Virus record (IMG/VR): IMGVR_UViG_3300032030_000076
Location: 3,038 to 67,037 of that record
DNA length: 64,000 nucleotides
Direction: 5' to 3' (one strand)
Source: a virus
Taxonomy: Duplodnaviria > Caudoviricetes
The notes below the pieces were generated by a model. It did no database searches. It was not told the DNA's origin and saw only the letters and a list, made by a program, of their open reading frames with translations. The position numbers were made by a program, and so were the translations under genes. The first letter of the stretch is position 1. Every line of letters begins with the position of its first letter. Below are positions 4,182 to 49,400 of the stretch, piece after piece.

Positions 4182-4630
4182 GCAGCCGTCCCTGTCTGTT
4201 GTGTCGGCGCGTTCGCCTTTGCGAGCACCGCCGCATTGTCGATTTCAGTCTGCGCCGTTCGTATCTCTCCCGCCACAAGCTCGATGTCTGCGGGGCGGAT
4301 GTTGAGCATGTCGAAAGTGCCGTCCATGTGCGGCGGTTTGCCGGGCGTCGGGAAGGAGACCGTCTCCTGTGACACGGCGTCGCGGAGTGACTTCACCGCG
4401 AGGTCGAACACGGCGTCGTCCTGCGCGGCGGCGGCGATTGTCTGGAGCATCGCGCCCACTCCTGGCGGAACGACGTTCATCAGGAACGACTCCGCCACGG
4501 ACGGGTTCTGCTCCGCCATTATCACGACGGTCATATGCCCCGCCTTCGTGAGCGAGAACGCGGGAATCATCGGCACGACGTTCTTGCCGTACCACCTCGC
4601 CACGCCCTTAACTATCGCCGTCTTCGTCAT
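4178..4630 (-). CDS. Hypothetical protein (150 aa, start reassigned to MTKTAIV)
   Basis: AAGGA RBS upstream of ATG 4630; ATGA overlap with the next gene. Confidence 0.65.
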   Translation of the reverse strand: MTKTAIVKGVARWYGKNVVPMIPAFSLTKAGHMTVVIMAEQNPSVAESFLMNVVPPGVGAMLQTIAAAAQDDAVFDLAVKSLRDAVSQETVSFPTPGKPPHMDGTFDMLNIRPADIELVAGEIRTAQTEIDNAAVLAKANAPTQQTGTAA

Positions 4631-4720
4631 TTGGTTTTCCTTTCGTCTGGCTTTGTCCGATACGTCCGGGTCAAGCCAGCCATTGAGACAGGCTTGGCCC
4701 GGACCATCGGGCAAGGCCGC

Positions 4721-6648: not shown

Positions 6649-6975
6649 TCACGAACGTTTCTTCGTCGAGAAGTGCATGACTTCCGGCGAAGTCGGCTCG
6701 CCACGTTCGATGGACGCGGGATCGACCGCGCCCGGATCAGAGTCGCCAGCCGCCTTCTTCGGCGGAGGCGTGGCGACGTTCTGATGCGCCGTCCCGACTT
6801 CCGCGTTCTCGGCGATGGCCGCCCTCGCGAGGACCTTTCCATCCGTAATCTCCCCGGCGCAATACTTCGCGTAAAGAGCGTCGGGTATCATCACGAACTT
6901 CTCCGGCAACGGGTCGCCATCAGCGAACCACGGCACCACGCGCCCGTCGACGAGGCTTGCAATCGTCTTCGCCAT
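6649..6975 (-). CDS. Hypothetical protein (108 aa, start MAKTIA)
   Basis: AAGGAGGTG RBS before ATG 6975. Confidence 0.65.
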   Translation of the reverse strand: MAKTIASLVDGRVVPWFADGDPLPEKFVMIPDALYAKYCAGEITDGKVLARAAIAENAEVGTAHQNVATPPPKKAAGDSDPGAVDPASIERGEPTSPEVMHFSTKKRS

Positions 6976-7545: not shown

Positions 7546-8565
7546 TCACACACCCTTGACCGCGAATGCCACGCCGAAACGCTCCGGGTAGCGGACGAAC
7601 CAGTCGCCGATGGAGACGGAACGGTGGAAGTCGCCGACGACGCTCTTGTCGCGCAGCACCTCCGTGATCGTCACCTCGTCCGCGAACGTGATCGCCGACG
7701 CGTCGCCGAAGAGGATCGGGTAAATCCAGCGGCCAGAGCCGGAGGAAGTCTCCCACTTCGGGAGAAGGTTGGACACGTACACGTCCATTCCCGCCAGCTT
7801 GCCGATGGAAGTCACGGCGTTCTTGCGAAGGATGGAGGTGTCGTCTCCCATCTTCTCGGCGTTGTTGAACAGCTCCGAGTTCTGGAGCAGGTTCGTCATC
7901 CACACGGGAACGACGCAGAACTGCGCCATCCCGGCGCCGCCAGGCTGCTCCTCCAGGGTGGAGGTGAAGCGGGTGACGAGCTCGGTGGCCGTGGTCTTGT
8001 CGCCGCCGTTGACGGCTGCGGTTCCGTTCGCGCCAGCCGCAGAATCGCTCTTGTAGAGCGAGACGGGCTTCGCGACCGTGCCGAGGTTGTACGACGCGGA
8101 CTGCTTTCCAGCGGCCTCGCCGATATTCGCGATGTCGGCCTTCGTGCCGGAACAGATGTCCTTGAAGAACCATGTCTCCCAATCCTGCGCCAGCTGCTTC
8201 GCGCCGATGTCGGTCCACTTTTCCGCCCATCCGGGGATGTCGGAAAACGCCTTCTGCACGTCGGAGACGGTAAAGGCGTAGAGCAGGCCCTTGTCGATGG
8301 TGAAGCGCACGTCGTAGGCTTCGGGCTTCTCGTACTTGATCTTCATGCCGTCCACGAAACGCGAGGTTCCGATGTTGGGCATGCAGCGCACGATGATGGT
8401 GTCGCCCTTGTTCTTGAAGGCGCCCTTGTACTCGGTGTTGGTGATCTTGCGGAGAATGGTGTTGTACCAGAACTTCTCGCGCAGCTTGGGGGAATAGATC
8501 TGCGGAATGTACGACTTCAGCCCGAAGTCGCCCTTGCCACCGGTAATCGTAATGGAGTTTGCCAT
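7546..8565 (-). CDS. Major capsid protein (HK97 fold, P22-coat-like family), 339 aa
   Basis: YIPQIYSPKL...ITNTEYKG...GDTIIVR...IDKG motifs and IGKLAGMDVYVSNLLP; follows portal and scaffold. Confidence 0.85.
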   Translation of the reverse strand: MANSITITGGKGDFGLKSYIPQIYSPKLREKFWYNTILRKITNTEYKGAFKNKGDTIIVRCMPNIGTSRFVDGMKIKYEKPEAYDVRFTIDKGLLYAFTVSDVQKAFSDIPGWAEKWTDIGAKQLAQDWETWFFKDICSGTKADIANIGEAAGKQSASYNLGTVAKPVSLYKSDSAAGANGTAAVNGGDKTTATELVTRFTSTLEEQPGGAGMAQFCVVPVWMTNLLQNSELFNNAEKMGDDTSILRKNAVTSIGKLAGMDVYVSNLLPKWETSSGSGRWIYPILFGDASAITFADEVTITEVLRDKSVVGDFHRSVSIGDWFVRYPERFGVAFAVKGV

Positions 8566-9521: not shown

Positions 9522-9869
9522 TCATAACGGGGGTCGGCTGCCGGTACCTCCGGGATAGCCGCCTCCAATTTCGGGCGTCAGTCCCGCCCCTGGCGCCGCG
9601 CCCCCGCCGAAGGGGGTTCCGTCGGCTAACGGAAGCCCTCCGTAGGGATGCTCGCCAAAGCAGGCCAACACCCATTCGATCTCCTCCGCCTTTCCGACAG
9701 CGCGGTTAAGCTGCGCCGCATCGGTGCTCGGAATGAGAAAATGCCTGATTTCCGCGAGGCGCGAAAGGAGCGCCCAGCGGATTATGTCGAAGTCCTGATG
9801 CGCGGCGACCTCGCGAAACGCCTTCGCCGAATTCTCCGCGTTGAACCGCTTTGGCGAGAACTCCTTCAT
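9522..9869 (-). CDS. Hypothetical head-module protein (115 aa)
   Basis: Coupled (ATGA) to the portal gene; conserved position between portal and scaffold. Confidence 0.6.
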   Translation of the reverse strand: MKEFSPKRFNAENSAKAFREVAAHQDFDIIRWALLSRLAEIRHFLIPSTDAAQLNRAVGKAEEIEWVLACFGEHPYGGLPLADGTPFGGGAAPGAGLTPEIGGGYPGGTGSRPPL

Positions 9870-12103
9870 GCCGCGCCCCTCCTCTCGTTCGCGCTGCCGG
9901 GCATCGGCTCGCGCGGCATGATGTATTGCGTCCCCTCGCGGTTGTAGGTTTCCTGCTGCTGCCCGCCGCCGTATTCGTCTCCAAGATTCTGCGGCGGCGC
10001 CGTCTGCCCGCCATCGCCGTCTCCGCCGCCGACGCCTTGCTGTTGCTGTTGCGCGCCAAGCTGCGCCTGTTTCGCGCCTGCCGCCTGTTGCAGCTTCGCG
10101 ACGTACTCCTGCAAGTCCAACGACTGCTTCGACGGAATGATCTTGTCGATGTTCGAGATGTCGTACGTCTCCAACACCTGCCTGAAAAGTTCCATGAGCC
10201 CGCGCGGGCCGACCGTCTGCACGAGGAACTGGTTTCCGGCGACCATCTGCATGAGCTGCAAGACCTTCTGCATCTCCTGCTGCTTGAGAATAAGCCCCAT
10301 CACGCCGGTCGGCACGACCTCGACGTCGCCCGTGTAGCCGATGCTCTTGTCATACAGCATGTGGCGGTAGGCGTCCATCTTCACCATCTTGCGGATGACC
10401 ATGCGGTCCAGCGCGTCAATGATCATCTTCATCACGCGGTTCGCCGCCTCCGTGAGCATGGCAAGCCCGCTGTAGGTCCTTCCGGCACCGCCGGTCACGT
10501 TCTGCCCGTACGTGTATGACGGGATTCCAGACACGTCGTCGACGCGCTTGATCGCCATGTTCATCACTTCGAGAATTTCTCCGATCCTCGAATCGACGCG
10601 GAGGACGCCCATCGGAGGCCCGCTCGACACGTTCACCCCAGCGACCTGCCCCTTGAACGCGATGACCTTGCCGCCCTGGAGCTTCAGGCCGTTCGACGTC
10701 TTGTCAAGAAGCCTCGACGCGTCGCTGACCCACGCGATAGGCGCGCAGGTCATGTTCATGTTCACGATCAGCGCGGGAAGACACGCGTTGAGGATCCGCT
10801 GGTACGCGATAAGCCGTTGCGCGAGCGAGTTCCCGAAAAACGAGTCCGGCGCGTCGTAGAACTGCGCCTTGCAGAGCGGACGCCCCATGCACGGATTGAT
10901 GATCCTGCAATACACGCAATACTCGTCGATGACGATTGCGTTCACCTCGTAGTAGTCGGCGTCCGACACCTCCGAGCCGTCGTGCGTCTTCGTCACGCCC
11001 ATGCGCGTCAAAAGGCTGCCCTTGACCTGCCCGTAGTACGAGATTCCCTCCATCATGCAGGAGTTGTCCGCCGTCCAGTTTGACTGCCCGCGCATCTCCC
11101 TGTTCTTCTCGTCGCCGTCCTGCCACGAAAGCCGAACGCCGCCAATCGGATACTTCGCGAGAAGGTCGTCGACGGTATCCGCGAACCACACGCCGTCGCT
11201 CTCCGCAGACTGTCCCTTGGCTTCCTGCGCGTTCAGCCACAACTCGTGAGACGAAATGCGCGTCTTGATGCAGATAGGCCCGTCGTCCGTCCCGGACTGG
11301 TCAGGCGCGGGATATACGTCGAGCGGGTTTACAGCGCGGAACGCAACGCCTTGATGCGGCTTGCGTTTTATGTTCTTCCCGTCCGCGCCGCCGAACTCGT
11401 TCTTCCACCTGACGCACGGGACAGGCCCCTCCCACAGCGCGGTACCGTATATCGTCAGGTATTCGACGCCCGTGTTGAATGCGTCCAGAAAGTCTGCTTC
11501 CTCGAAGTCGTCGCGAACGCGCCGCTCCAGAAGCGCGATCTGGTCGTTGGAATACTCCCTCTGCATGTTCATCAGCTCGCCCATCCGATCGTAGCTGAAC
11601 TGAGCGACGGCATCTTCAGGCAGCGGGCCTCCGGCCTGTTGCGCGACGCCCAGCAGCTCGTCTAGGATCCGCTTCAGGAACATGTCTGTCACGAACTTCG
11701 GAACGTCCGGATGCGAGGTGGATGTGATTTTCGCAGGGAACTGCCCGCTCTCCGAGAAAATCTGCTTGAGCTGCGACAGCGCGGCGGCGCGACGAGTCTC
11801 CGTCGCCGCGTCGGTCATGTCCGCTGGAATGCCGAGCGCGGCCATCTTCGCGCGCTCCGCCGCGTCCGGTTCCGACATGCACACGCGCCACGACTCGCGC
11901 ATCTGCTCATGGAATCCCTTTTCGACCGCGAACCGCTCGTTCTCTAGGAACGTGTCGAAGACGAACCTCGCGAGCGTCATCTCGCGCGGCGTGGTGCGCA
12001 CGTCGCGGTCAAGCACCTCGCCGTCGGCCGCCTCTCCGGCCCCCTTGAAGTCGTTCACGTCCGGCGCAAGCGCCGTCGCCGAAATCTGGTCCAGTTCGTC
12101 CAT
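9866..12103 (-). CDS. Portal protein (745 aa)
   Basis: Size, position after terL, RIDDVSGIP/SYTYG-type segment and GRTYSGLAML motif, Gln-rich tail. Confidence 0.85.
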   Translation of the reverse strand: MDELDQISATALAPDVNDFKGAGEAADGEVLDRDVRTTPREMTLARFVFDTFLENERFAVEKGFHEQMRESWRVCMSEPDAAERAKMAALGIPADMTDAATETRRAAALSQLKQIFSESGQFPAKITSTSHPDVPKFVTDMFLKRILDELLGVAQQAGGPLPEDAVAQFSYDRMGELMNMQREYSNDQIALLERRVRDDFEEADFLDAFNTGVEYLTIYGTALWEGPVPCVRWKNEFGGADGKNIKRKPHQGVAFRAVNPLDVYPAPDQSGTDDGPICIKTRISSHELWLNAQEAKGQSAESDGVWFADTVDDLLAKYPIGGVRLSWQDGDEKNREMRGQSNWTADNSCMMEGISYYGQVKGSLLTRMGVTKTHDGSEVSDADYYEVNAIVIDEYCVYCRIINPCMGRPLCKAQFYDAPDSFFGNSLAQRLIAYQRILNACLPALIVNMNMTCAPIAWVSDASRLLDKTSNGLKLQGGKVIAFKGQVAGVNVSSGPPMGVLRVDSRIGEILEVMNMAIKRVDDVSGIPSYTYGQNVTGGAGRTYSGLAMLTEAANRVMKMIIDALDRMVIRKMVKMDAYRHMLYDKSIGYTGDVEVVPTGVMGLILKQQEMQKVLQLMQMVAGNQFLVQTVGPRGLMELFRQVLETYDISNIDKIIPSKQSLDLQEYVAKLQQAAGAKQAQLGAQQQQQGVGGGDGDGGQTAPPQNLGDEYGGGQQQETYNREGTQYIMPREPMPGSANERRGAA

Positions 12104-12151: not shown

Positions 12152-13711
12152 CTACAGGATCATTTGTCCTATTCCTGCGCCGGACACAACCGCGTCGAGC
12201 GCCGCGTCGTCCGCGCCAATCGAATAGGGATTCGAGAAGTCCATGCCGCTGTTCTTGATGCCGCACACGAGGTATTGCAGCGCATCGTGGACATCCGACA
12301 CGGGATGCCCCTTGTCAGGCTCGTCCGTGTACTTCGCGTCCTCCTCCGCCGCGCCGTCCAGCCGCATCCGCCGATAGTGGTAGTCGCCGTTGAACCCGCC
12401 GATCAGAACCTTGCACGACGGGTCTATGATGATCGCGGGCGCAGCTCCTATCCGCCTGTTCAGTATCTCCGACACGTTGTTGATGCGCGTCACGGACGAG
12501 TTGTGGTATCCCCTCTGCCCGTATGGCGTGACCGGCGCGGGGATGATGTTCATTCCGTACTTGTTCATCGTCTCGATGCAGGTGCTGTCGTCCACCTGCG
12601 TCGGGTCCGCCCCCGCAGGATCGCCGAACCCGAACGTCTTCACTCGGTAAAAGTCAAAGTCGTTCACGAGCATCGGCCGCAGCTTCATCGTCACGAAGTC
12701 CGTTATCCCCATGTTGTCCGACGTGACCTCGCGCAATATCCGAATCTGTCCGTCCAGCCCCATCTGCCCGATCACCGCGCAGGGCGTCCGCCCGAAATCC
12801 TGCCCGTAGATCACCGGCAGGTTCTGCGAGAACTCCAGCGGCTTCTTCGCGACGTGGAAATCGTACGAGAACTCAGGGTACACCGGCCGCCCGGCCTTCT
12901 TCACCACCCACTTGTTCAGCACGAACCTGTCGATCTTTTCCTGCGACGAGCCGAGTTGGAAGCGCCAGTAGTCGAACCCCTCGTTATGGTTCTCCACGTT
13001 CTCCGCCGGAGGATACGCGGGGTCCTGCCCGACGTTGTTCTCGTACGTCACCTCGTTCGTCTCCGGGTCGACCTTCCGCAGAAGCGCGGGCGGCTGCACG
13101 AAGAACTCCCACCCCTCCGGACACTCCGTCTCCTTCTTGTACCACCAGTTCGACACGTCCAGCGGGTTCGTGTCCATCAGCACGCCCAGCGACGGGAACG
13201 TCCTGTCCCCGTCCTTCGCGGGGTATCGCCCAAGTCGCGTCATCGCCTGCTCCACCGCGTTCAGCGAAACCTGGCACGCCTCGTTCACGTATATCCCCGA
13301 AATCTCAAGGCCGAGCAGATGGTCCACAGCCCCAGGCGAGTCCATCGCCCTGAACAGAATCTCGATCTCCATCGGATCGCCCTTCGGCGTCGTCATACGC
13401 AGCTTGCCCTCAAGCGGAGGCGACCAGTGCATCGTCAGCGCGTGTATCCTGCCGAACCAGTTCACCGCAGTCGCCACCGTCGTCGACTTCAGCTCGTCGT
13501 ACGTGTTCCTGATCACCACCCACCGCGCGCGCACCACGCCATCCGCCATCGGCGGCATCAGCTCCGCAGTCTTCCGCACGATCTCCATCCACGACATCAC
13601 CGTCTTGCCCGATCCCGTCGGGCCTCGGACGCACTTCACCTTCGCCGCGCTCGCGTGGAACCTCGCGCCGGTCGGCGTCGCGACGTAGAACTCACCCTTC
13701 GGCCTGGACAT
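12152..13711 (-). CDS. terL: Terminase large subunit (519 aa)
   Basis: Walker A GPTGSGKT, SGIYVNEA Walker-B region, RNase H-like nuclease motifs GQDFGRTP and SDVHDALQY. Confidence 0.93.
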   Translation of the reverse strand: MSRPKGEFYVATPTGARFHASAAKVKCVRGPTGSGKTVMSWMEIVRKTAELMPPMADGVVRARWVVIRNTYDELKSTTVATAVNWFGRIHALTMHWSPPLEGKLRMTTPKGDPMEIEILFRAMDSPGAVDHLLGLEISGIYVNEACQVSLNAVEQAMTRLGRYPAKDGDRTFPSLGVLMDTNPLDVSNWWYKKETECPEGWEFFVQPPALLRKVDPETNEVTYENNVGQDPAYPPAENVENHNEGFDYWRFQLGSSQEKIDRFVLNKWVVKKAGRPVYPEFSYDFHVAKKPLEFSQNLPVIYGQDFGRTPCAVIGQMGLDGQIRILREVTSDNMGITDFVTMKLRPMLVNDFDFYRVKTFGFGDPAGADPTQVDDSTCIETMNKYGMNIIPAPVTPYGQRGYHNSSVTRINNVSEILNRRIGAAPAIIIDPSCKVLIGGFNGDYHYRRMRLDGAAEEDAKYTDEPDKGHPVSDVHDALQYLVCGIKNSGMDFSNPYSIGADDAALDAVVSGAGIGQMIL

Positions 13712-14363
13712 CCACCACCCCCATCTGCGTCTTCCCGCCGCCGAAGTTGAACGTCAGCGCCACCGCAGGCTTGTCCGGCCCGCCGCCCATCGCCGGAACT
13801 CCTTTCTCCCGCCGGAACTCCGGCCCAGACATCACCAGCAGCCGGTCCAACATCTTCTCGCTCTTCTTCCGCCCAACCTCGTTCCCCTCCCTGTCGAACA
13901 CCGCCTCGCCCTCCGTCGCCATCTCGAACGCCGTGTCCAGCACCTGTTGCCCCATCAGCTCCTTCATCGCGTCCCGCGCCGCCTTGTACATCGCGTCGAA
14001 CTCCGGGCACACGAACCTGAACGCCGTCACCTCCGCCTGCGACAGCCCCGCCTCCGCCCGCGCCTTCCCGAAAGTCTTCCCGGACAAGAGCAGCCCGATG
14101 AACTTCACCGCCGCCCGCGCCCTGTTCAACCCTCGCTTCGTCGACCCGAGCCCCTCGTCCACGATCGGACGCAGCCAAGTCTGCGCCATCGAGTCGAAGT
14201 TCTCCCCGACAAGCCCGAGCTTGCCGGCAAGCGCAGACACCGCGCCGACCTCCGCCGACACGTCCGTCTTCCTCGGCTCCAAGAACATGACCGTCTCCTT
14301 CATCGCCTGCTCGCGCAGCCATTTCTTCTCGGCCCACGTGCTTTCCGCAACTATGCGTCCCAT
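13692..14363 (-). CDS. terS: Probable terminase small subunit (223 aa)
   Basis: Overlaps the terL start; helical FDAMYKAARD...LDTAFEMATEG and KSEKMLDRLL pattern typical of TerS. Confidence 0.65.
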   Translation of the reverse strand: MGRIVAESTWAEKKWLREQAMKETVMFLEPRKTDVSAEVGAVSALAGKLGLVGENFDSMAQTWLRPIVDEGLGSTKRGLNRARAAVKFIGLLLSGKTFGKARAEAGLSQAEVTAFRFVCPEFDAMYKAARDAMKELMGQQVLDTAFEMATEGEAVFDREGNEVGRKKSEKMLDRLLVMSGPEFRREKGVPAMGGGPDKPAVALTFNFGGGKTQMGVVDVQAEG

Positions 14364-14619: not shown

Positions 14620-14990
14620 CCCTGGGCAGGGGGTGGGCAAGTGGGCAGGCAAGCACCCTGCCCACAATCTCTAACATTTTCGCAACTTTTCAATCGCATA
14701 TTGTTAGACACCCTCGCGCGCGCGCGCTTGCGTGCGCGAAATTGAGCAATACGAGGCTATATTATGACCCCATTCGACCCCATTTTTCCTCGTACATATT
14801 TATATATATACCCCTGCCCACCCTGCCCACTCAATATACTTGTATAAAAACAGTAAAAATCATCATAAAAGTGCAAAAATACTGGGCAGGCAGCTTGCCA
14901 CAAAACGCACCCCACCCCTGCCCACCCTGCCCACGACGAAAAAACAGCCGCACGTTCGACCCCAGCCTCGCGCGCCGAAAAAGGGCAGGT
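14620..14990. repeat. Cluster of TGCCCA/TGGGCA motifs in non-coding DNA upstream of terS
   Basis: About nine copies in both orientations, including tandem CCCTGCCCACCCTGCCCAC near 14812 and 14916. Confidence 0.7.
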
Positions 14991-15269: not shown

Positions 15270-15460
15270 AATTGCGAATAATCGCAATTTTGTTTGTTTT
15301 TCTTTAACTTTCGAAATTGCGTTCAATTTTTTCGCAATTTTTAACAGATTTTTTTGCGAAAAACAGTCGTTGGAATGTCGCATAACTCTTGTGTTATGTC
15401 AACTAGCGGGCGATATTAGAAAAACGCGAACACCGCCTTTATCTTGCGCAAACATCGCAA
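15270..15460. promoter_or_regulatory. AT-rich region with TTGCG-Nx-CGCAA inverted repeats (operator/accessory-site candidates)
   Basis: AATTGCGA-ATAA-TCGCAATT (15270-15289), AAATTGCG-N11-CGCAATTT (15314-15340), TTGCG-N7-CGCAA (15444-15460). Confidence 0.55.
15375..15404 (+). other. Xer recombination site (dif/cer-like, 8-bp spacer)
   Basis: ATGTCGCATAA-CTCTTGTG-TTATGTCAACT resembles the XerC arm (GGTGCGCATAA) and XerD arm (TTATGTTAAAT). Confidence 0.7.
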
Positions 15461-15981
15461 TTGATCCTCGCGCGTTATCCTATAGTGGCAGATTTGCAGT
15501 TTTTTTGATGCTATCTGACCGGCTTCGCATGGCTGCCGGCTGTCGCGCGCAACGCGTCGTATCATGTGGACTTTTGGGCGTTGGCCTTGGCCTTCTGATG
15601 CCGGTTGCGGCGGCGATTGCGCGGTTCGGCACGGCCTATTGCGCGTATTTGGCCTTGGGCGCGTTCAGGCTGCCTGGGCGTTGGATTGGCCGTTCTATGG
15701 ACGCGGCGCGATTCTAGAGGCGTTTTCGGGCGGTTCTGGGGTGTTCTTGGTTGGTGGCTGGCGGTCGTGGCTGGTCGATCTGTGGCATTTGACGGGATTT
15801 TTGGTGCGTGACGCGCTTGCGCCGTGCCTGTGCCCGTGCGCTCGATCGCGTCGTGCGTTCGCGCGTTCGCGTGCGCGTTGGTGCGCGCGCGCGTGGGTAG
15901 AAAGGGGATTGAGTGAAGGGGGAAGGAAGGGTAGCGGATTTTTGGGCGCGTGAGACTTTTTCGGTTTTTTTCTGGGGCCCC

Positions 15982-16010
15982 TTGCGCGGGGGCCGGGGAT
16001 GTGGTAGAAT
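15982..16010 (+). promoter_or_regulatory. Sigma70-type early promoter
   Basis: TTGCGC-17 bp-TAGAAT with extended -10 TG. Confidence 0.65.
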
Positions 16011-16154
16011 GGTGGCGTTCCCCCGTGATGGGGCTTGCGGCGAGTGACTCCGACGTAAGGCGTGTGCGAACAACAAACCTTTTGGGCTTGTCCGGGTGCG
16101 GGAAACCGCCAGAGTCAACCGGGCAGGCCCAAATTGCATAATGGAGTGACTCCC

Positions 16155-16829
16155 ATGAGCAACGAGACGAAGAAGGTCGCGAAAGCGGCAAGCCCAGACT
16201 GGGGCGAGAACGGTATCACGCCGGAGCGCGTGACTTGGGCAAAGACTACGCTGTTGGCCAATGCTGAAGAGCACGAGCAAAAGGCCGCGCGGTATATTAC
16301 CGAAAAGGCGCTAAACGTGCTAAAGGCGGCGGACGGCAAGATAATTACGCGGCGACTGTTTGACAAGCTCGCGGCGGCGTGGGGTGTCGAGAAGACGGAA
16401 AATCCTTTTGGCGGCTATCGTTACCCCGGATTGACATGGGGAGACGAAAAGAGCTATTTTGGCCGCAAGTTCGAAATTGAGATCGCGGGCAAAAGCGGCT
16501 ATCGTTACTGCCTGGAGCTAGTCCACGACGGCGGCGCGCTTGATGCTGTGCGCACGGTCGCAAAGTGGACGGAAGAGGCGGAACGCTGGCGGACGTGGGC
16601 GAGGGAAAATCGCGCTTGCGCCGGTTGCATCGAGTTCGCGGCCGCAGAGTATAACGCAATACACGCACACGCGCGAAAGCTCATGGAAGCGTTGCACGGG
16701 CGGCTCGGCAAGGAAATCATCAACCCGGAAATAAGCGTCTTGTGCGCTTTCGGCGGTGATATATACGACAGATTAAACCCCTTCCGCTGGCACGAGTCGA
16801 AGAGTTGGGAAAACGAAAGGAGGGGCTAA
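16155..16829 (+). CDS. Early hypothetical protein (224 aa, start MSNETK)
   Basis: GGAG RBS; first gene after the promoter. Confidence 0.7.
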   Translation: MSNETKKVAKAASPDWGENGITPERVTWAKTTLLANAEEHEQKAARYITEKALNVLKAADGKIITRRLFDKLAAAWGVEKTENPFGGYRYPGLTWGDEKSYFGRKFEIEIAGKSGYRYCLELVHDGGALDAVRTVAKWTEEAERWRTWARENRACAGCIEFAAAEYNAIHAHARKLMEALHGRLGKEIINPEISVLCAFGGDIYDRLNPFRWHESKSWENERRG

Positions 16830-44855: not shown

Positions 44856-46052
44856 TTATTCTGTCGGCATGATCGCGAAGTACGCTTCGCCATCTGCCTT
44901 GCTCGCAAGCCCGCAGTAGTTGTCGGCCCTCATCTTTTCGCTCGTACCTACCATCGCCGTCGTCTTCGCAGGATCGCCGTACGCCGCGACGTGGTACGTG
45001 ATGAACGTATGCCTCCCGCAGTTCTGGAACACGGGAATCCCTTTCAGCCTCGCGGCGTGGTAGATTTCCTTCTGCGTGTCATTCGATATGTCTTCAAGAG
45101 CCTTGTGGAAGTCGAACGACTTCATCCAGGCAAGCGCCGTCGGATGTATGTGAAACGCCCTCGGCCTCTTGCCCTGCTGGAATCCCTTCGCCTTCGCGAT
45201 CCTGATCGTCGCGCCGTCGAGGTCGATCTTCGCGGCGTCGGGATCGGATGCCATTCGCAAGATCTCGACCGCACGGCATCCGCAAAAGAACGATACGATT
45301 GCGTATGCGAGCAGTTCCGGCCTGTCGGCCTTGTGGGCTTCGAGCAGACGGAACAGCTTCTCGACGTCATCCGGCTTCATGTAGTCTGGCTCCTCCCACG
45401 GCTCAGGCTTGAACTTCATCGAGCGAATTGGATTCTTTGCGAGATATTCGCGCTCTTCCTTGCAGCACCAGTTTAGGAACGTCTTGATGTAGAGAAGGTG
45501 CGAGTTGTACGTCTTTGGCTTCTTGTCTGCGTAACCGGCGTCAAGGTAGTCTGCAATCTCCTTAGCGCTGATCGACGCGAGCGTCCTGTCGCCGAGCGAC
45601 CTTGCCCACTTCCCCGTGGTTGCGTTAGTCTTGTCCTTGTCGGCGCCTTCGTTCTTTGCGTCGTAGTATTCCTCGTATGCCTCTGCTACCTTCTTGTCTC
45701 CTTCTGATGAAGGCCGACGCTCTTCTTTCGCCTTGACGTAAGCGTTAGCAACGTCATAGAGCGTGACGCTGATTCCTGCCGACGCGAGCAGGTCAAGCGC
45801 GTTCTTCGCGTCAAGCGCCTGCAACGCGTTGAGTCTGACTGCCGCGTCGCCTCCCGCGCTGTGACGCTGGTAGAAGTCGCGGATTGCCGCCATCATGTCA
45901 TCCTTCGTTTTTCTGGAAATCCGAACGGGCTTCCGTTCAAACGGGTCGATTCCAAAATATGCCTCGTAGTCGCGATGCAACTTCCCGAATCGTTGCTTCC
46001 TGATTCTGACTTTGATGTTTTCCTCGACCGTGCTCTTTGGTAGGTATGCCAT
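44856..46052 (-). CDS. int: Tyrosine recombinase / phage integrase (398 aa)
   Basis: FCGCRAVEI (R), AKAK (K), GRHTF (RH) and C-terminal NY catalytic Tyr region. Confidence 0.9.
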   Translation of the reverse strand: MAYLPKSTVEENIKVRIRKQRFGKLHRDYEAYFGIDPFERKPVRISRKTKDDMMAAIRDFYQRHSAGGDAAVRLNALQALDAKNALDLLASAGISVTLYDVANAYVKAKEERRPSSEGDKKVAEAYEEYYDAKNEGADKDKTNATTGKWARSLGDRTLASISAKEIADYLDAGYADKKPKTYNSHLLYIKTFLNWCCKEEREYLAKNPIRSMKFKPEPWEEPDYMKPDDVEKLFRLLEAHKADRPELLAYAIVSFFCGCRAVEILRMASDPDAAKIDLDGATIRIAKAKGFQQGKRPRAFHIHPTALAWMKSFDFHKALEDISNDTQKEIYHAARLKGIPVFQNCGRHTFITYHVAAYGDPAKTTAMVGTSEKMRADNYCGLASKADGEAYFAIMPTE

Positions 46053-46147
46053 TTCGTCACCTTGCTTTCCGTTTTTTTTGATTGCGAATCATTTGCGAAA
46101 ACATTTTTATCGTCCACTTTGACGATGCCTAAAAAATGAACGAGGCT

Positions 46148-46176
46148 ATTATAACATAAGGGCGAAATGAATGCAA
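46148..46176 (-). promoter_or_regulatory. Integrase promoter candidate
   Basis: Minus strand TTGCAT-17 bp-TATAAT with extended -10 TG. Confidence 0.6.
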
Positions 46177-46392
46177 CCCCTAGCAGGTTAAAAATTGGGA
46201 TTATATCAAAAAAGCATTTATGACGCAATAGTGAAGAAACGGCTTATAATTTTACATTTTGTTTATATTATAACAGGTCGTGATGTTTTTGAAATGAAAA
46301 ACGCATTGACAGTTGATAAGATTTTTTGACATGAAAAAGCGTTTTTTCTTGTGAATTTTTTGCGAAAGATTCGGCGATGCGGACGCACGACG

Positions 46393-46430
46393 CAAAGAAA
46401 AATCCCCTGACGAAGCGGCAACTTCGTCAG
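46393..46430 (-). terminator. Terminator after the late operon
   Basis: Perfect 9-bp stem CTGACGAAG/CTTCGTCAG followed on the minus strand by GGGATTTTTCTTT. Confidence 0.6.
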
Positions 46431-46483
46431 AGTTTCGGAGATGAATCCCCGAGTGTCTTGAAAAGACAGCAAGGCATTGTACA

Positions 46484-49400
46484 CTATTCACCGAGGATTC
46501 GCAACACCTGCGCTTGCAAGCGCAACCGTTCCTTGCGATGGCTGTCGCGTTGCTTCTTGCCTATCGGCATCTTCGGCTCGACCCACTTCTTCCCGCTCTT
46601 GATCTCGCCGCGCTCCAGATGCGTAAGTTCCTTGATGCGGTCGACGAGCTTATCCACTCGGCCTTTTTCTGCCGTAAGGTACGGACGCGCGCGCTTCAGC
46701 TCGCGTCGGCGCCCGGCGTCTTTCGTGCCCTTGAACTCCGCCTTGTCCTTCTCGTAGCCGTCCAGCGCGTCGAAGTAGCGCGAGGTGGACTCTGGATATT
46801 CGCGGACAAGGCGGCGCACAATCGGCATGTCAGTCAGAAGCCTGTCCGTGTCGCCTCCCTTCGCGGCATGGTAAAGGTTCTGTACAGTGGAATACGCGTT
46901 CCCGACGTCTCTTCCGAACCCGCCCCAGATGAACTCCCACACGAGCTGTGCGTCCTCCGGCGCGATGTCGATCTTTCCCTTGCGCAAGCTGTTGCCGCCG
47001 GAAAGGGCGTTGACCGCCTGCGTCAGCTTCTGGTACGGCCACGGCGTGTTGCGCTTCCCGTTCCACGACTTCGGCGCGTTCTTGTCGAACGACAGCTTCA
47101 CGCGCTCGTCGCCCTTGTAGTTCTTTCCGCTCGCAAGCTGGATGATCGGGTCGATCGCTGACGGCGCGACGGACTGCCCGAGCAAGTTCCAGTCCAGCTC
47201 GCCCTTGTCGTTTATCATCCCGTTGCCGCCGACGAGATCGGTTATCTGGTCGGTCAGCTCGCGCGGCAGGGCGGCCAGCGCGTCCTCCGGCTTCGTCTCG
47301 CCGAGGATCACGTTCGTCGCGGTCTGCGCGAGGTACGGAAGCGCGGCATACGGGCCACGGAACCGCAGCAGGGGCATCTGGCGTCCCCAACCGACGGGAA
47401 TGCCGACGTTGTGCTTCTTGTCGTATTCGCTCATGTTGCGCGCGTTGCGCCCGCCCTTGCGCTCGCGGTCGTCGTCGTTGCCGCCGAAGTGGTCGATGAC
47501 AGCCTTCGCGGCGCCGATGCCGACGAGCAGCGCGATGAAGTCGCCGCGCATCTTGTGCCTGCCCCAGCCGCTTCCGTCGTCTGGAAGGTCCTGCACGGAT
47601 TCCTTGCCCGCCTGCACCGCGCGCGCCGCGCCCTGCACCGACGCGTTCGCGAACATGTACAGTCCGTTGACGATGGGCATGAACGACCCCTTGCGGTTGA
47701 AGTCCACGGTCGCCTCGCGGGCGAACTTGACGGCCTCGTTGACCGGCACTCCCTTGTTGTGGATGGCGGAGAACAGCCCGATGCGCGTGGAATACTCCAT
47801 GAACTCGTTCGCCGCCGCGATGAAGTCCTTGCCGCTCTCCCACGCCCACTTCGCCTTGTCTCCGGCTGACATCTTCCAGAAGCTTTCCGCGCTGCGGCGG
47901 AGCTTGTCGAGCCGCAGGCGCACGTCCTGCTCATTGCCCTCGAAGCCCGCCGACGCGACGCCGCCCTTCGTGAGCAGTCCAGCCTTGATGGCCTTCTTCA
48001 CGTCGCCTCGCAGCTCGCCGCGCCGCACGTACCGCCACACGTCCTTCGCGTTGCGTATCTCCGCCGCGACCGCCTTCGCGAACGCCGTAGCGCCGTCCCA
48101 CACGCCGTACCGGCCCATGAGCGCCTGCGCGGCCTCAAGGCTGTCGGCGATGTAGTTGCTGACAGAGAACTCCGGCGAGTATTGCGTGCGCATCGCGCTC
48201 ATCCAGTGCGTGACGGCTGGCACCTTGGAGAGAATGCCGTCGCCCCACGTCTCCACGTTGTCGCCCTTGAACGACCTCATGAAGTCGCGCCCTCGCCCGT
48301 TTACGCCCTTGTCGACGCGGATGGCGTAGAGCTTGCCGTCGCGCTTGAAGAGCTGGATGTCCTCGCGCTCGTCCGCCATCTGCATCCCGGCGTTGGCCTT
48401 CACCTTGTCCGCGTCGCTGAACGTGAACACGTAGTCCGAGCCGTGGTGCGCCTCGTCGATGCCCTCGACGATCTCGCCGATGTGCAGGCCCTGCGCCTCC
48501 GCCCATTCGACGAGGTTCGCGAGGACGTTCGCCGTCTCGTTGCGGATGGATCCGCGTATGCCCTGCTCCGCCTGCAAGAGCGACGCCGCGACCGGCGAGT
48601 CCGCGATGTCCGCCGTCCCGCGCCCGAACGCCTTCATGAACTCGCTGCGCCTCGGGCCTGCGGTCGAGGAGTTGAGGAGCCCCGGCTCAAGCTGCTCCAC
48701 GTCCGTCTTGAGCGGAACGTAGTTGCTCCATTGGTAGAGGTAGTAGTTCGCCTCGGAAGGGGAGAGCTTGCCGGATTCGAGGCGGCGGCGGATGTCGTCG
48801 CGGTTGATGTCGACGAGCGCGCGCTGGGCGTTCTTCATGTGGCGGAACCTGGCGCGGCCGTACTTGGCCTCAAGCTCGGCGATGATGTCGTTGGCGACGT
48901 TCGCGGAAAGCCCGACGCGCGCGCCGTTGCGCACGATCTCGCCCATTCCGTAGGAATAGTCGTCGTCCGGCGTGACGCCGTTGCGCCGCGCAATCGTGTC
49001 GTTGCGTTCCTTCGCGTGCTTGCATTGCGCGTAGAGATCGAGGTCTTGCAGCAGCTCCTCGGACGACTGGCCGTCGAGCCTCGCGCCGTTGAGGGCGCGC
49101 GCCATCGTGTCGACCTTGCGCTGCAACCCGCGTGTCTCGTGCTCCACGCGCCCGTTCGCCTTCTGCAACGCGGCGGCGACGTCGGTCGATTTCGTCCAGT
49201 CCGTGTAGCCGTCGGACGCGCGAATCTCCTCCTTCACGCCGGGAATCTCGTCCTGCACGTCCTTGATCGGCGCGTGGCTGTCGAGGAAGTGTTCGCGCGC
49301 CTTCTCGGTGCCGGTGCGCACGTCGTCCATGATGTTGGAGCCAGCGGGCGCGGGCGCGCGGGCCGTGCGGACGGAGGTCGCCTCCGGCTCGAGTTCGGAC

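Follow-up and report, generated by a model that had tools for sequence, protein, structure and literature searches.

A Xer-type site with dif-like arms and an 8-bp centre in a 67-kb tailed temperate phage

Host Xer recombination is exploited by plasmids, by small non-tailed phages and by islands, and plasmid Xer sites avoid crossing with dif by having centres that differ from the dif centre. The loxP/Cre system of P1 is an example of site-specific recombination in a tailed temperate phage, and can close DNA that is terminally redundant. It also keeps circles monomeric (PMC2409434). The working range of Xer-site centres is 6-8 bp; the cer site has an 11+8+11 layout with exchange by XerC, and it needs PepA and ArgR on approximately 180 bp of DNA next to the XerC arm (PMC5357621). 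IMEX sites occur in the CTX, VGJ and TLC phages and in the gonococcal island, and also in Microviridae and double jelly-roll prophages (PMC5357621, PMC3091885, PMC12715192). All of these are small, either non-tailed phages or islands, and most lack an integrase, the exception being the Int-type double jelly-roll prophages (PMC12715192). Overall, exploitation of Xer has been described for filamentous, double jelly-roll and Microviridae elements, and Xer-like recombinases encoded by the phage have been described for plasmid prophages (PMC12715192, PMC3091885, PMC8026635, PMC5357621). In the searchable literature, we found no description of a site with host dif arms in a tailed phage that has its own integrase. 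Here we present a candidate.

The window is a stretch of 64,000 nts, bases 3038-67037 of a 67,037-bp virus record (classed as linear in IMG/VR and as 100% complete by CheckV), and the phage DNA probably comes from a sheep gut metagenome. Phage positions are given in window coordinates. To the left of the Xer-type site, and all on the minus strand, are the genes for the small terminase subunit (terS, 13692..14363; phrog_4044, E 4.8e-5), the large terminase subunit (terL, 12152..13711; phrog_2, E 8e-16, plus a weak Terminase_6N match), a portal of the SU10 type (9866-12103) and the major head protein (7546-8565). To the right, on the plus strand, an early promoter TTGCGC-N17-TAGAAT (15982..16010) and a conserved leader precede the first early gene (16156..16829, 224 aa as called in the protein database), which has no Pfam or PHROG match. 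This gene has protein relatives at 81% and 51% identity, and a related-locus search found none in viral contigs. The minus-strand packaging and head block and the plus-strand early block thus place the site within a divergent gap of about 1.8 kb. The GC skew flips around this region, and an ORF of 129 aa inside it (15564-15953), without a Pfam or PHROG match, is counted as non-coding. Comparing 12 kb around the site to GenBank phages by megablast gave no match, and Rfam and tRNA scans of the site region gave nothing credible.

Approximately 30 kb from the site, a tyrosine-type integrase is encoded on the minus strand (44856..46052; phrog_1, E 8e-25), with identities of 66% and 40% to the integrases of two relatives (the complete G001:C17 and G002:C87, respectively). 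The earlier note's description of a tailed temperate phage with an integrase of its own is borne out by these genes. The phrog_1 match is good, but the integrase has no match to Pfam PF00589 (Phage_integrase) and no sequence match to any solved structure, so we classify it as a divergent tyrosine recombinase. Adjoining it is an AT-rich gap (46053..46483, 37% G+C), which is likely the attP of the phage integrase and which holds a second cluster of the TTGCGAW motif discussed below.

The site itself, ATGTCGCATAA-CTCTTGTG-TTATGTCAACT, spans 30 bp at 15375-15404 and occurs once in the 67-kb phage. Read directly on the plus strand, it consists of a XerC-type arm ATGTCGCATAA (15375..15385), a central region CTCTTGTG of 8 bp (15386..15393), and a XerD-type arm TTATGTCAACT (15394..15404). 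To place these arms we need the dif of the host lineage. A TerL search identified relatives of the phage in two rumen MAGs, G002 (an uncultured Lentisphaerae bacterium, TerL 79%) and G001 (same order, TerL 90%). TerL relatives are present in 22 of 319 genomes of the order, with two contigs collinear with the phage, which makes the assignment of the host to this Lentisphaerae-type order reasonable at the order level. Amongst 61 sampled genomes of the order, the pattern TCGCATAA-N6-TTATGTnAAnT is found in 18 (once in 16 of them, twice in the other two), always with a spacer of 6 bp, and a reversed-pattern control has no matches in the same 61 genomes. The full form is A[C/T]GTCGCATAA-TATATG-TTATGT[A/C]AA[C/G]T. 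In the complete 6.13-Mb chromosome G051, the motif is at position 229,429, at the peak of the cumulative GC skew where dif is expected, which supports reading it as dif. As a by-product, this gives a dif consensus for a poorly studied order of the PVC group, usable to assign hosts to rumen phages. The recombinases are also there: G002, G018 and G051 have a XerD (TIGR02225) above the curated cut-off together with a second Xer paralogue, and G001 has two Xer-type paralogues, the best one at 315 bits, just under the XerD cut-off.

The phage arms are those of this dif. The left dif arm is ATGTCGCATAA in three host-order genomes (L056, L063, L067; 11/11 with the phage) and ACGTCGCATAA in most others, and the phage XerD-type arm agrees 11/11 with the right dif arm in L053, L062, L063 and L068. 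In G018 (C154, L063), the dif is ATGTCGCATAA-TATGAG-TTATGTCAACT, where both arms are identical to those of the phage site (22/22). The site of dif type in G002, GTGTCGCATAA-TGCGTG-TTATGTCAACT, has a gene above the curated XerD threshold at a distance of 1.2 kb. The core pattern has one match in the window and none in 100 dinucleotide-preserving shuffles. On a weight matrix from 13 distinct host-order dif sites, the phage site reaches 42.6 bits, with a maximum of 43.2, and no other position in the 67-kb phage gets above 1.7 bits; the matrix is partly circular, as the host dif sites were fished with a pattern derived from the phage site. That pattern left out the initial three bases of the XerC arm, so their agreement (ACG, ATG or GTG in the hosts, ATG in the phage) is independent. 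The earlier note had matched the site to the XerC and XerD arms of dif and read an 8-bp spacer, and both observations hold up.

The inner CATAA...TTATG of the site is a simple inverted repeat, and relatives have repeats of their own at the same relative position (GTTAGC palindromes in L046, ATGAGA repeats in L002), as could happen if the resemblance had arisen by chance or if the site bound some unrelated phage protein. We find this hardly credible, given that the outer, non-palindromic arm bases that distinguish XerC from XerD also match the host dif, and that a sequence scoring this close to the matrix maximum is single in the genome, with no second CAYAA-N8-TTRTG anywhere in the phage. The dif likeness is not a chance effect, and the phage site belongs by sequence to the class of Xer core sites.

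It is not a chromosomal dif. The comparison with the host dif that the earlier note had proposed gives identical arms and a different centre. Host dif centres have 6 bp, mostly TATATG, and the dif is at the replication terminus of a lineage encoding XerD and a second Xer paralogue, whereas the phage site has an 8-bp centre of unrelated sequence and is carried on a phage genome. The flanks of the phage site and of host dif are unrelated, with similarity confined to the core. Because the centre is not dif-like, the site does not look like a fresh capture of chromosomal dif. Versions with 7- or 8-bp spacers are absent from the 319 genomes of the order. A centre of 8 bp is still inside the working range of Xer sites.

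Our preferred reading, which we hold tentatively and at somewhat less than an even chance, is that of a XerCD site specific to the phage lineage, at which phage recombines with phage and not with dif. Host XerC and XerD probably bind the site: with arms identical to those of the host-lineage dif, the two would bind side by side. Since the private 8-bp centre differs from the 6-bp dif centre in both length and sequence, exchange would be productive only between two copies of the phage, and crossing with chromosomal dif is not expected. The outcome would be the resolution of multimers while the phage DNA is circular, or the closing of a terminally redundant molecule. The reading is supported by the arm identity to the host-lineage dif, the uniqueness of the site in the phage, and the Xer genes of the lineage; the site is absent from relatives. 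The nearest functional parallel is P1 loxP, which like the phage site is on a tailed temperate phage and near the packaging region. P1 has its own recombinase and a plasmid prophage, while here the enzyme would be the host's.

The earlier note had likened the site to cer. In ColE1 and related plasmids, cer resembles the phage site in its 8-bp centre, in its single copy on a mobile replicon, and in the AT-rich DNA on the XerC side. In cer, that accessory DNA of about 180 bp is bound by PepA and ArgR, and the exchange is by XerC only (PMC5357621), whereas the host lineage is without these proteins in the genomes searched: neither PepA (Peptidase_M17) nor ArgR (Arg_repressor_C) is found in G051 (complete, 6.1 Mb), G002, G001 or G018, with control genomes positive. 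The AT-rich tract of the phage (15255..15372) has 26% G+C compared to 60% for the window, and includes four TTGCGAW copies and the palindrome AATTGCGA-ATAA-TCGCAATT (15270-15289). A fifth TTGCGAW copy is to the right of the Xer-type site at 15454-15460. The equivalent TTGCGAA-rich tracts are present in L002 and L046, both without a Xer site, from which it follows that the tract was not built for the site. The tract predates the site, different from what is seen in cer plasmids. The palindrome-bearing AT-rich tract next to the XerC arm is therefore there as the earlier note said, but the cer-like accessory role given to it falls, both by the relatives that have the tract without the site and by the lack of PepA and ArgR in the four host-order genomes. 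The phage site is not a cer in the strict PepA/ArgR sense, and the analogy holds for the spacer length only. Accessory proteins other than PepA and ArgR are possible at the phage site.

The same plasmid analogy had suggested an episomal phase, based on a pair of ParB genes. We could not reproduce the ParB pair: there is no ParB_N match in the six frames of the phage, and no ParA-type ATPase (AAA_31, CbiA) is over the cut-off, so the hint at an episomal phase is not supported. Plasmid-maintenance genes, unlike in cer plasmids, are not found. With no partition genes detected and an integrase present, a long-lived circular plasmid phase is unsupported. The relatives assemble as circles (with end overlaps of 99 bp), which fits permuted or circular DNA and not specifically a plasmid.

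The remaining described precedent is IMEX, in which the host XerCD would integrate the phage at the chromosomal dif, making the site an alternative attP beside the phage integrase. As in IMEX, a dif look-alike is carried by a phage and would use the host XerCD, both arms are intact, and centres of at least 7 bp occur among IMEX sites. XerD-first integration exists in the TLC phage and the gonococcal island (PMC5357621), and the XerD-proximal GTG of the phage centre matches two to three bases of host dif centres ending in ATG or GTG. On the XerC side, CTC has no match to the host TAT or TGC, and the centre lengths differ, so that compared to IMEX centres, homologous to dif beside the exchanging recombinase, the phage site has almost no centre homology. 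Most IMEX elements rely on the host Xer instead of an integrase of their own; this is a 67-kb tailed phage whose phrog_1 integrase is conserved, also in relatives without the site, and has its own AT-rich gap. Integrated IMEX copies are flanked by dif-type sites at the terminus; in the 319 genomes of the order we find no integrated copy, no hybrid and no 7- or 8-bp site, and contigs of the source run, in which rare forms are hidden, have no joint at 15375-15404. Judging from the IMEX literature, two perfect arms would also expose a prophage to excision driven by FtsK. We regard integration at dif as quite improbable. We also considered and rejected the site as the attP of the phage integrase itself, which is conserved in relatives lacking any dif-like site and has its own AT-rich gap 30 kb away.

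The site is not a feature of the phage family. None of about 20 relatives examined has it: it is absent from L001-L003, from G001:C17, from G002:C87 and from 18 further TerL relatives of the order, for which the scan covered the DNA upstream of terL (two further fetched stretches were too short to scan). G001:C17 is a complete and collinear genome of 63.8 kb with a 99-bp end overlap, a TerL at 90% and an integrase at 66% identity. The arms are therefore not kept amongst the relatives examined, an outcome that the earlier note had listed as counting against its reading. Amongst the metagenome runs, all of them examined as contigs in which DNA ends are not visible and rare junctions are hidden, the site turns up in the probable source run alone, where it has 0 differences and no joint; in other rumen runs, the matches are confined to the terS part, to some of the repeat region and to the promoter piece. 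Phage DNA with the site comes from one sample only. In the non-coding DNA around it, similarity is no longer detectable to relatives with approximately 74% identity in the structural genes.

This distribution is what a non-functional relic would produce, either a Xer site acquired from some mobile element such as a plasmid, or a dif-like site that lost its function when the centre gained 2 bp, within an intergenic region that changes fast. The site is in one genome and missing from all the relatives examined, the 8-bp form is otherwise unseen in the lineage, and the flanking region is hypervariable between relatives. Yet the two arms are intact at 22/22 in the midst of non-coding DNA whose similarity is gone, and decay predicts mismatches in the arms unless the event is very recent. 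A relic seems unlikely to us, if worth keeping in mind. The best reading of the distribution is that the putative phage-with-phage XerCD site is a recent, lineage-specific addition to a control region shared by the family, and outside the core biology of the family.

A different function for the same letters has to be weighed on the minus strand. Read in that direction (15374..15402), the site resembles a promoter, with TTGACA (15402-15397), a 17-bp spacer with TG at -15/-14, and GACATT (15379-15374). The -35 hexamer agrees at 6/6 positions and the -10 at 3/6, with no T at -12. A dif-derived sequence could then serve as a promoter or regulatory dock and not for recombination, and bound XerCD could repress it. 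The candidate promoter points to the AT-rich tract and the terminase operon. In the host-lineage dif, TTGACA and TGCGAC are 15 bp apart, and the 8-bp centre brings the spacing to the 17 bp of a promoter. Phage promoters of the lineage have the form TTGACA/TTGCGC-N17-TAGAAT/TATACT with TG at -15/-14, and in three distant relatives the best matches of the matrix are such promoters with the same CAA-N8-TTATG layout. (We rejected these weak 8-bp-spaced matches upstream of terL as Xer sites; they are ordinary TTGACA-N17-TATACT/TACATT promoters, with TG at -15/-14, of a divergent gene.) Against a promoter, besides the missing T at -12, the promoter scan did not list this entry, no gene follows for approximately 1 kb downstream, and the promoters of the three relatives have the reverse orientation with respect to terL. 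At all five positions where the phage site departs from the promoters of the relatives, it has the dif letter, which in one case costs the T at -12 and so weakens the -10, and a generic sigma-70 promoter leaves all but about 10 of the 22 arm positions unexplained. From these two facts, the dif identity is primary, and a promoter role, if any, secondary. We give a role as promoter or dock in place of recombination a low probability.

The arms, with other centres, are found beyond this phage. In IMG/VR the same arms occur in 42 stretches from about 40 contigs, compared to a chance expectation of about 0.4 (an estimate that assumes approximately 5e10 bases in the collection). All have 6-bp centres that are not those of dif; none has an 8-bp centre, and none has TATATG. 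Most are intergenic, adjoining head, terminase, methylase and primase genes. We tried and rejected a link of these sites to packaging, as three terS and two terL amongst 84 neighbours is about the number expected. The 42 stretches give indirect support to the idea that tailed phages keep such sites. Taken together, a perfect site with host dif arms in a 67-kb tailed rumen phage and some 40 viral contigs sharing those arms suggest that docking or use of XerCD extends to tailed phages. The phage site itself is a singleton with an unusual spacer, which is the weakness of extending it to tailed phages at large.

A more ambitious version is that tailed phages widely borrow the host XerCD in the way P1 uses Cre-lox. 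This phage and the approximately 40 tailed-phage contigs in IMG/VR, with the same arms and non-dif centres, would use host XerCD to close injected DNA that is terminally redundant and to maintain replicating circles as monomers, and the private centres would stop crossing with the chromosomal dif. The 8-bp centre of this phage would moreover give rise to a promoter with a spacing of 17 bp, so that one and the same site would be a target for recombination and a XerCD-gated promoter for the packaging operon. We consider this combination distinctly unlikely as a whole.

In a large metagenome set, we find five distinct 8-bp versions, about the number expected by chance and unrelated to this phage, and 7-bp versions that are real repeat families. 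The latter (loci L073-L135) have the same arms and a 7-bp centre TTTGCTA, GGGCGCC or TGGCGCC, and are multi-copy with conserved flanks. In single samples, many of them sit at the ends of contigs, and they have the look of Xer-dependent mobile elements or cassette boundaries of an unknown kind.

Amongst the host-order genomes, two have a site of dif type beside xerD, at 1.2 kb in G002 (C106, L049/L068, L136) and at 10 bp from the gene end in G018 (C154, L063), both with centres that deviate from the consensus. The distance between xerD and dif in the complete G051 is 3.4 Mb. Linked xerD-dif modules are known for single-recombinase systems (XerS, XerH); we know of none for XerCD. Two other genomes have two dif-type sites each. 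The two in G014 (C101:27-51 and C195:93-117) are both at contig ends and have near-identical flanks. Those in G034 are at C1:20882 and C4:121948, the second with a non-dif centre TCGTCA. These double sites may be elements integrated at dif.

Outward from terS, the phage family has a common architecture of G-rich repeats around an AT-rich core, a box ATGGGGACTCCCTGTTGCCA, the AT-rich TTGCGAA tract, and a hypervariable stretch. In this phage, the G-rich repeats are of the GTGGGCAGG type, direct and inverted (14620..14934; repeat families D4 and D5, inverted pairs I1, I22 and I23). Each relative has its own G-rich repeats of 9-10 nts (GGGGGACAA or GGGGAACAA) at the equivalent place (L002 4890-5130, L003 4770-5150, L046 6880-7170), again as direct and inverted copies that flank a TATA-rich core immediately upstream of terS. 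The repeats are possibly a phage-specific recognition array, as of a pac, cos or origin region. The box, of 20-25 nts and on the minus strand in this phage (ATGGGGACTCCCTGTTGCCAT, 15160..15181), provides the one intergenic blastn match to L002/L047. It sits between the AT-rich tract and the G-rich repeats, and is found also at L002 ~4597-4636, L003 ~4640-4660 and L046 ~6705-6728, as the sole island in the otherwise unalignable intergenic DNA of four related phages. The box could be a packaging, origin or RNA element.

Of 20 contigs with TerL relatives, seven (G097, G154, G112, G138, G274, G278, G294) end 0.9-1.9 kb upstream of terL, in the non-coding region equivalent to that of the site, which points to repeats or physical DNA ends there. 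End overlaps are 69 bp in G097:C1 and 99 bp in G151:C187; in the relatives, end repeats are limited to overlaps of 69-99 bp of the kind that assemblers produce, and a long terminal repeat able to hold the site is not found. The TTGCGAW motif is over-represented in the window, with 48 copies compared to 29 expected, and clusters at two non-coding places, 15272-15460 beside the Xer-type site and 46082-46539 at the integrase gap; both clusters may be served by one DNA-binding protein. Within the region of the site, 15979-16174 is the stretch shared most widely, and includes the early promoter and a 140-nt leader. It appears in other rumen runs mostly at more than 95% identity and in several host-order genomes at 77%, and it is present twice in G142.
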